Assembly (NCBI RefSeq): GCF_003334405.1
Contig: NZ_QOWM01000029.1
Origin: Escherichia coli
GTDB taxonomy: Bacteria; Pseudomonadota; Gammaproteobacteria; Enterobacterales; Enterobacteriaceae
Reading direction: 5' to 3' (one strand)
DNA: 27,599 bases
In this document: positions 1,581 through 2,520 of the stretch, piece after piece
How the letters are laid out: every line of letters begins with the position of its first letter
Position numbering within the stretch: position 1 is the first letter of the stretch
The notes under the pieces: model-generated
What the model saw: only the letters and a program-made list of their open reading frames with translations
Databases searched by the model: none
Told to the model about the DNA's origin: nothing
Program-made: the position numbers and the translations under genes

Positions 1581-2280
1581 GGATTGATGTAGATCAAGTG
1601 TATGTTTATGGTTTATTATTCTTTAAAATTTAATGAATATGTTTTTTTGTTCTATTTTTATCTGTTTTGTTTAGAATAAAATCTCGATAACTTTGTATTT
1701 TCAAGATAAAACACTTTTTTTCGAAAAAAAAGAAATTTGTTTTTTTCTTATAAATAAATATAACATGATGATGTTTGTGTTTTTTGTAAAATCAACTAAA
1801 TATCAATTGGTTATATTGATATCATCTGGTTTTTAAATGTGATTTTCTCTTGGTGGTTGGTGTCTCTAAAAATATCTTAATGAGATCAGAGGTAATAATA
1901 AGAAAGAGGGGGGGGGATATCAACAAAAATGATATTGCTTATCAAGAAAAGTAATGAAAAACCAGAAAAAAGAGAGCAGATAATACAGAAGCTAAAAAAC
2001 AAGAATACTTATGATTTATTTTCTTAATAATTATTCTTTACTTGTAGTACTCATCAGCCTCAGAAGTTTTATAGATGCAAGTTTTTATCTGCAGCAGCTG
2101 CAAAAAATATTAAATCAGTTGGGTAGGGGACAATGAATAAAGACGATTTGCTGAAATAGATGAAGCTCATGCGGGGAAATACACTTTTAAAAAGGCCCTT
2201 GTTGATGTAAATACTATTTTCTTAAATGGAGATACGCTGTATTTCATCAGATATCGGTTATTTTATAACGCAACCCTCCT
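1581..2280 (-). promoter_or_regulatory. AT-rich fimbrial operon regulatory/promoter region
   Basis: About 700 bp of very AT-rich non-coding DNA with long A and T tracts directly upstream of the PapB-like regulator. Two GATC sites (1592, 1884). No PapI-like ORF of 60 aa or more. Confidence 0.4.
1908..1916. repeat. Homopolymeric G9 tract inside the AT-rich fimbrial regulatory region
   Basis: Nine consecutive G residues (agaaagag GGGGGGGGG atatc) embedded in otherwise AT-rich sequence. Confidence 0.9.
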
Positions 2281-2520
2281 GCATTGATGGTCGGGGGGTT
2301 TTGTTATGAACATCATTTCCAGAATCCCCCGCAGATGCTCCTGTCGTTTCGGAATAGCCTTTGTTGCTTCATACCGTATCAGGTTGTAAGCCAGCAACAT
2401 GCCTACATATTCTGTTCCAGTAGCCCTGTATCTTGAAATTTAGTTAGCATAGTAACGAATAGATTTGGCAAGGCGTATGCAGCCTAATTCGACTAAGGTT
2501 TAAAGCTCGTCTGTAGGTGA

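Follow-up and report, generated by a model that had tools for sequence, protein, structure and literature searches.

Insertion sequences of the IS4 family encode a DDE transposase in a single ORF without frameshift, and this enzyme carries the signature Y-(2)-R-(3)-E-(6)-K in region C1 (PMC2266710, De Palmenaer et al. 2008). Members of the IS4 subgroup are 1400-1650 bp long, have ends of the -AATR type, generate target duplications of 10-13 bp and possess the YREK motif (PMC2266710). In the IS110 group, to which IS621 belongs, a bridge RNA is encoded in the left end of the element, and a rule has been described for its right target guide (PMC11208160, Durrant et al. 2024). Truncated RNAs consisting of the target-binding loop, acting in trans, have been proposed in a 2025 preprint (10.1101/2025.10.25.684509). 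A preference of IS5075 and IS4321 for terminal repeats of transposons of the Tn21 type has been reported (PMC8269217, citing Partridge & Hall 2003). Sequences derived from or related to all of these elements are present in the plasmid locus described here.

The window, which is the whole stretch of Escherichia coli DNA analysed (27,599 nucleotides; contig QOWM01000029.1 of GCA_003334405.1), has identical ends (positions 1-77 and 27523-27599), indicating that the contig is circular, was assembled with k=77 and has a true length of 27,522 bp. It represents an IncFII-RepA plasmid with a K88/Pef-type fimbrial operon, and a PefC/AfrB-type usher gene crosses the window ends. The operon appears to be an undescribed variant. 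The plasmid backbone shares ~95% identity with E. coli plasmids; an ORF at 11058-12131 (minus strand) aligns with TraI relaxase/helicase profiles over positions ~1120-1463 only, and this fragment of a conjugation gene implies that the backbone also bears deletion remnants. Upstream of the gene for a PapB/FocB-family regulator (1209-1580, minus strand), the region 1600-2200 is very AT-rich (27% GC). When the uninterrupted form of this fimbrial regulatory region, i.e. an empty site, was sought in PLSDB, only the PapB-like gene was matched, at 74-77%. Over 1500-4400, identity to GCA_024592615.1 and to two read-set assemblies is 99.6-100%.

The region between the fimbrial operon and the plasmid backbone consists of four stacked mobile-element layers, of the IS4, IS110, Tn3 and IS5075 types (Table 1). 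The IS4-type layer, at 2210-2424 on the minus strand, is very probably what remains, without function, of an insertion sequence belonging to the IS4 subgroup of the IS4 family.

Table 1. Mobile-element features identified between the fimbrial regulatory region and the plasmid backbone.
Feature	Position	Strand	Remarks
Whole IS4-family relic (terminal repeat and 3' end of the transposase gene)	2210..2424	-	Residues ~346-445 of a 445-aa transposase
Decayed terminal inverted repeat, AAATACTATTTTCTTAAATG	2209..2228	-	Aligns with AATGCCGTTCACTTAAGCGG (L001, L008) and TAATGCCAGTCAGTTAAGC (K-12 IS4)
45-codon ORF, MLLAYNLIR...RVAL	2263..2400	-	Stop TAA at 2263-2265; leftover open stretch of the pseudogene, not a gene
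Site of the 105-nt (35-codon, in-frame) internal deletion	2355..2359	-	Extra 105-107 nt in 5/5 relatives (L001, L002, L008, L011, L012)
Core dinucleotide at the junction of the IS4 relic and the IS110 left end	2425..2426	+	CC in the window; CT in 9/9 other site types
Left-end fragment of an IS110-group element with truncated bridge-RNA gene	2427..2571	+	82.9% identity to L078 121-266
Outer stem arms of the IS110 fragment	2473-2484 and 2523-2533	+	Consensus two-domain fold
Putative left target guide, AATTCGACT	2486-2494	+	Guide-to-flank complementarity in relatives
Putative right target guide, CTGTAGG	2511-2517	+	Guide-to-flank complementarity in relatives
Junction zone of the IS110 left end and Tn3-family tnpA	2572..2580	.	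Covered by neither homology
3' end of Tn3-family tnpA and inverted-repeat tip (...GGGACTTCCCC)	2581..2905	+	NF033527 positions 879-954 of 954
Intact IS5075/IS4321-like IS110-family element, CDS 2928-3989	2906..4285	+	NF033542, 347.6 bits

The IS4-family origin is evident at both the DNA and the protein level. In a megablast search with 2150-2530, 55 E. coli records and 66 plasmids match window 2357-2424 at 85.5-87% (E 7e-11 in 28 Gb of E. coli genomes and 2e-11 in plasmids), and the genes concerned are annotated as 'IS4 family transposase'. In blastn against 7.3 Gb of plasmids the match widens to 2221-2424, in two pieces of ~80-82% identity, with E values from 4e-18 to 1e-19. The reference relative, L001, is an element of E. 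coli CRE10 (NZ_CP034404.1, ~1502190-1503620) encoding the 445-aa transposase WP_001130319.1, which scores 257.5 bits on the IS4-family profile NF033592 (cut-off 115) and is 39% identical over 424 aa to InsG of K-12 IS4 (E 1e-83). Pairwise blastn aligns window 2210-2355 with L001 2246-2394 (75%, E 4e-26) and window 2346-2424 with L001 2490-2569 (83%, E 5e-17). The relic peptide matches the L001 transposase in BLASTP with E 9e-10, and tblastn with this transposase aligns residues 346-445 to the window with E 2e-10, finding no second IS4-type sequence elsewhere in it. The first-pass annotation had suggested that the peptide reads like a genuine protein C-terminus and that its AYNLIR loosely resembles the ends of some IS transposases, a suggestion that depended on there being significant similarity to some protein. 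Such similarity is present far beyond chance (blastn 1e-19, tblastn 2e-10), the peptide being a C-terminal remnant of a transposase, and the family to which the likeness pointed is the IS4 family, IS4 subgroup.

No intact copy closer than 75-87% at the nucleotide level turned up among E. coli genomes, in PLSDB, in 100,044 species-representative genomes or among the metagenome loci fetched. A degenerate-pattern scan of the 100,044 representative genomes gave six loci, none of them above ~84% over short stretches and none a parent IS. The L001 protein is absent from the collection used for exact-sequence cluster look-up, and no solved structure was found for an IS4-type relative. The label 'ISEc13-like', which an annotation in L002 suggested for the relative, was rejected; the protein annotated there belongs to a different, adjacent element and is unrelated to L001.

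The anatomy of the relic was derived from a multiple alignment with five relatives (L001, L002, L008, L011 and L012, which stem from E. coli, Salmonella, Buttiauxella and Enterobacteriaceae RIT693) and from global pairwise alignment. IS4-derived DNA extends from the IS terminus at 2209/2210 to 2424, possibly to 2426. The terminus carries a decayed IS4-type repeat (AATACTATTTTCTTAAATGG) which starts with AATA, in agreement with the subgroup end consensus -AATR (PMC2266710), and is identical to that of L001 and L008 at 13 of 20 positions; of the seven mismatches, six represent GC-to-AT changes and the remaining one A-to-T. The repeat corresponds to the end on the C-terminal side of the transposase and delimits the relic towards the AT-rich fimbrial regulatory region. 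The ends of L001 (AATGCCGATCAGTTAAGG and AATGCCGTTCACTTAAGCGG) and those of K-12 IS4 (TAATGCCGATCAGTTAAGG and TAATGCCAGTCAGTTAAGC) are almost alike. A 35-nt inverted repeat of L001 was considered as the IS end and rejected by comparison with K-12 IS4 and L008, which place the true end 17-18 nt further in; the outer part of this repeat is a partly palindromic target duplication together with the target arms.

The YREK motif of L001 comprises Y311, R314, E318 and K325, and the relic begins 21 residues after K325, at residue ~346. The YREK region is therefore absent and no catalytic residue is left in the window, so that the relic can be regarded as derived from an IS4-family element and not as a functional member of the family. 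Within the remaining part, a stretch of 105 nt present in all the relatives is missing. In L001 this stretch is bordered on either side by GTTTC, which suggests that the deletion may have been microhomology-mediated. Three small frameshifting deletions are also present, of 2 nt near 2274/2275, 1 nt near 2297/2298 and 1 nt near 2401/2402; the first two scramble the last ~25 codons and create the TAA at 2263-2265, a premature stop 18 codons ahead of that of the relatives. The full-length relatives have one uninterrupted ORF, as is characteristic of the family, and its loss from the relic is expected of a pseudogene fragment. Substitutions with respect to the consensus of the relatives comprise 30 GC-to-AT against 5 AT-to-GC changes, and the GC content is 42%, compared with 52-54% in the relatives. 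Among the four near-identical assemblies the sole difference inside the relic is position 2241, which is A in the window and G both in L087 and in the IS4 relatives, consistent with a recent G-to-A change and continuing decay.

The relic is separated from the Tn3 fragment by 145 nt (2427-2571) representing the left end of an IS110-group element. The proposal of the first-pass annotation that a further insertion/deletion junction lies between the fimbrial regulatory region and the Tn3 remnant is correct in that additional junctions exist, at 2209/2210, 2424-2426 and 2572-2580, although the relic does not directly abut the Tn3 fragment; the intervening IS110-group piece is not listed in that annotation. 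Window 2424-2571 has matches of 70-76% identity in 958 E. coli records, from 920 genomes, and every match inspected is situated 30-35 nt upstream of a gene for an 'IS110 family transposase' (NF033542). A pattern scan of metagenome contigs revealed 70 loci, the best of which, L078 (82.9% over 2427-2571), is an intact element with its left end just upstream of a 328-aa NF033542 transposase. The protein of another homologue, L004, matches the IS621 recombinase of known structure with E 1e-29. At the junction the window reads ...GC CC/TGTATC, compared with ...CT/TGTATC in nine other site types; the left end thus starts at 2427 and the core is 2425-2426. The right boundary of the IS4 relic coincides within 0-2 nt with this exact left terminus (core plus TGTATC), which is common to nine other IS110-group copies. 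On the right, copies of the family terminate in ...CAAGACAGTTG, after which CT follows.

Only ~145 of the ~180 leader bases are kept in the window. The first loop, the predicted target-binding one, is entire, and the fragment stops at 2571, halfway through the donor loop. Of the latter, the 5' half with GCAGTTGTC at 2557-2565 is present and the 3' half is lost, as are the recombinase gene and the right end. A consensus fold computed from nine relatives shows two domains, each with an internal loop; covariation is weak, with only two compensatory pairs. The fold of the window fragment itself is no more stable than that of shuffled sequence (z +1.1), and an Rfam E-value scan of 2000-4500 matched no family.

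The guides of this IS110 subfamily (L004-L006, L014, L021, L037, L044, L078) can be compared with the flanks of its copies. Seven nucleotides at the 3' side of the first loop form the reverse complement to the core plus 5 nt of the right flank, matching at 6-7/7 in each of the seven intact copies, where the background is 3.7. The left guide fits the left flank at 6-8/9 in five of the nine site types; L005, L006 and L044 (3-5/9) and the window (4/9, background 4.5) are at background level, and the right flank of the window fragment is lost. The core-binding bases of the right guide (2516-2517) are GG in the window and AG in all other leaders examined. The CC core and the GG guide bases mirror each other, and both changes run against the GC-to-AT drift of the fragment (11 GC-to-AT against 4 AT-to-GC substitutions); this pairing could be a natural variant with a non-CT core or a coincidence. 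The cognate target predicted from the guides of the fragment has no more matches in the window than expected by chance. Three features by which an IS110-group insertion may be recognised are thus lacking: the left end is not directly upstream of a recombinase gene, as Tn3 DNA starts at ~2581, the left guide is not complementary to its flank, and the core at the boundary is CC and not CT.

The exact terminus and the two-base core at the IS4/IS110 junction favour a recombinase event, while the non-cognate left flank argues against canonical on-target insertion. It is possible, and should be kept in mind as a tentative alternative, that the IS4 relic is real and that its right boundary arose by an off-target or recombinase-mediated rearrangement, a deletion or inversion, which joined the left end of a resident IS110 element to an unrelated point of the IS4 sequence. 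Such a rearrangement would account for the left guide, AATTCGACT, matching the IS4 flank, CAGTAGCCC, at the background level noted above, and for the sequence expected on the right in the IS4 relatives (CAACC..., after a core CT or TC) mismatching the right guide, whose cognate is CCTACAG. Non-cognate left flanks also occur in L005, L006 and L044; the right flanks of L006 and L044 are perfect, and L005 lacks the right end. Against this, the junction coincides precisely with the canonical left terminus and has a two-base core, which is also seen in true insertions, and a core was available, since the IS4 relatives carry CT at the corresponding position (CAGCAG-CT-C). Moreover, the guides may have mutated since, given the decay of the fragment.

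Truncated left ends of the same IS110 subfamily are found in other virulence plasmids, namely the ETEC CFA/I plasmid NZ_CP035833.1, where the fragment (L003 3001-3125) adjoins the CFA/I fimbrial operon, and in ~120 Shigella plasmid records; orphan fragments of bridge-RNA genes appear to be common relics. About 30 metagenome loci (the L015 group, e.g. L015 2527-2711) share only the first ~70 nt of the left end, followed by unrelated sequence, and may represent either another truncation or a chimeric leader type. By analogy with the proposed target-binding-loop RNAs, the window fragment, if transcribed by read-through, could act in trans as a 'target-loop-only' RNA alongside a resident, full-length member of its own subfamily, a role which is very doubtful. 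Should it be real, the CC core and GG guide would also document the natural use of a non-CT core.

On the right, the homology with the IS110 left end ends at 2569-2571 and that with the Tn3 family begins at 2579-2581. A leftward extension of the Tn3 match to 2533 in tblastn was dismissed, as its identity is low and 2427-2571 is 83% identical at the DNA level to the IS110 leader. The tnpA remnant is 82% identical to a plasmid copy (L013) and shows a GC-to-AT bias of 45:14. The IS5075/IS4321-like element directly follows the Tn3-family repeat tip, and its compositional bias is weak (65:40). Window 2581-4285 is 88.5% identical to many plasmid copies, position 4285 being where homology with the reference plasmids stops and not a mapped IS end. 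A second GGGGAAGCCC... motif is located at ~4236, after the IS5075/IS4321-like element.

The peptide that drew attention to the locus is encoded by the minus-strand ORF 2263-2400, the window translation of which is MLLAYNLIRYEATKAIPKRQEHLRGILEMMFITKPPDHQCRRVAL. In the translation of 2263-2520 (...ISRYRATGTEYVGMLLAYNLIR...RVAL) the ORF is preceded in the same frame by ATGTEYVG and, before that, by a stop. The first-pass annotation had quoted this peptide for 2262-2440 of the minus strand; the peptide exists, although its codon phase is that of 2263-2424, and the coordinates given are one base out of phase and denote another frame. Neither is that range the extent of the element, as IS4 DNA reaches ~53 nt further left, past the stop codon, and 2427-2440 belongs to the IS110-group left end. 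The impression of a clean ORF gives way to that of a more damaged relic, with the internal deletion, the three frameshifting deletions and the premature stop described above. Because of the 1-nt deletion near 2401/2402, the first eight residues quoted, ATGTEYVG, are outside the ancestral frame, and the in-frame homologous translation begins at GMLLAYNLIR. The ORF is identical to L001 at 15 of 16 positions in GMLLAYNLIRYEATKA and at 15 of 19 in IPKRQEHLRGILEMMFITK; past ITK the frame is lost through the 1-nt and 2-nt deletions near 2297/2298 and 2274/2275, respectively.

The survival of an ATG-initiated ORF adjoining a fimbrial regulatory region, with a sequence nearly invariant in four assemblies, might indicate that the 45-aa product has been retained as a domesticated small protein, for example a C-terminal piece of transposase that inhibits or regulates transposition near the fimbrial switch region. 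This is very improbable. The near-identity spans the whole 2.9-kb stretch including its non-coding parts, which points to recent common ancestry and not to selection, the end of the ORF is out of frame after two small deletions, and 35 codons are gone with the 105-nt deletion. The substitutions in the relic have the spectrum of neutral GC-to-AT decay. A scan for sigma-70-like promoters on either strand of 1900-3000 found none, where 3.5 were expected by chance, and the sole purine-rich stretch before the ATG (TAGG) is 1-2 nt away, too close for a ribosome-binding site. Judging from the sequence, the relic does nothing now, and the 45-codon ORF is what remains of its reading frame.

That the ORF arose by chance in AT-rich intergenic DNA, unrelated to any transposase, is hardly conceivable: the peptide alone has no match in an NCBIfam profile search, which is explained by the IS4 profile (residues 25-358) ending where the relic begins, and the 53-aa peptide returned nothing in a word-indexed protein search, whose index is poorly suited to so short a query, yet several independent searches gave highly significant DNA and protein similarity to IS4-family elements, reaching beyond the ORF into the terminal repeat.

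The four elements are identified and delimited, the lesions of the relic are evident and expression signals are lacking; on this basis an order of events can be proposed. It would have begun with an IS4-type element, its transposase gene reading leftwards, inserting into the AT-rich DNA that lies upstream of the PapB-like fimbrial regulator. Its interior would then have been broken at 2424-2426 by an IS110-group element, the left end of which starts at 2427. Subsequent losses may have removed the catalytic domain and the other end of the IS4 element as well as the greater part of both the IS110 element and a Tn3-family transposon, so that at 2572-2580 the IS110 left end is now joined to the final ~300 bp of the Tn3-family tnpA. 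The decay of the IS4 relic, comprising the 105-nt deletion, the small frameshifting deletions, the premature stop and the GC-to-AT drift, would have taken place thereafter. The IS5075-type insertion is probably the youngest layer, since it alone is intact and it is the least decayed.

In this way ~370 bp of otherwise unexplained sequence can be annotated as two nested IS relics, which is of use in reconstructing the history of the plasmid and avoids a spurious 45-aa gene call. The flanks and guides of the E. coli IS110 subfamily provide a small natural data set of possible interest to those working on bridge recombinases. The one new aspect of the relic is the absence of its parent IS from the collections searched; otherwise the locus consists of ordinary nested IS scars, the truncated bridge-RNA gene being a minor curiosity.

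Among described systems, the type element of the IS4 subgroup is IS4 of E. coli K-12 (1426 bp; InsG, b4278). L001 shares its terminal repeat AATGCCGATCAGTTAAGG and has a similar size of ~1430 bp, with a target duplication of 11 bp compared with 12 bp in K-12 IS4. The window relic retains the homologous repeat and the C-terminal region with the LLAYNL(I/V)R motif; however, the direct match of InsG to the window is weak (E 0.005), and the relic is a fragment, ~15% of an element, without the catalytic domain. The best DNA match to the relic, 75-87%, is provided by the IS4-subgroup element of the WP_001130319.1 type, present in E. coli and Salmonella and with relatives in Buttiauxella (L008) and Enterobacteriaceae RIT693 (L011 and L012). 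The repeat, the C-terminal tail and LLAYNLIR follow in the same order in both; in contrast to this element, the window copy lacks the 105 nt, is frameshifted, contains a stop, has a GC content 10 points lower and is truncated at residue ~346.

The donor of IS621 has a left end starting with TGTAT after a two-base core (ACAGTATCTTGTAT), and the left end of the window fragment likewise reads TGTAT after a two-base core. Its relatives also share with IS621 a non-coding leader upstream of an NF033542 transposase gene, and the right target guide rule of IS621, whereby the first loop carries on its 3' side the reverse complement to core plus right flank, holds in these relatives as well. The window fragment differs from IS621-type systems in having neither a recombinase nor a right end, in its non-cognate left flank and in carrying CC/GG in place of CT/AG. 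Finally, in the case of IS5075 and IS4321 (IS1111 group, IS110 family), the position of the related element in the window, after a Tn3-family repeat tip, is the arrangement known from the literature.
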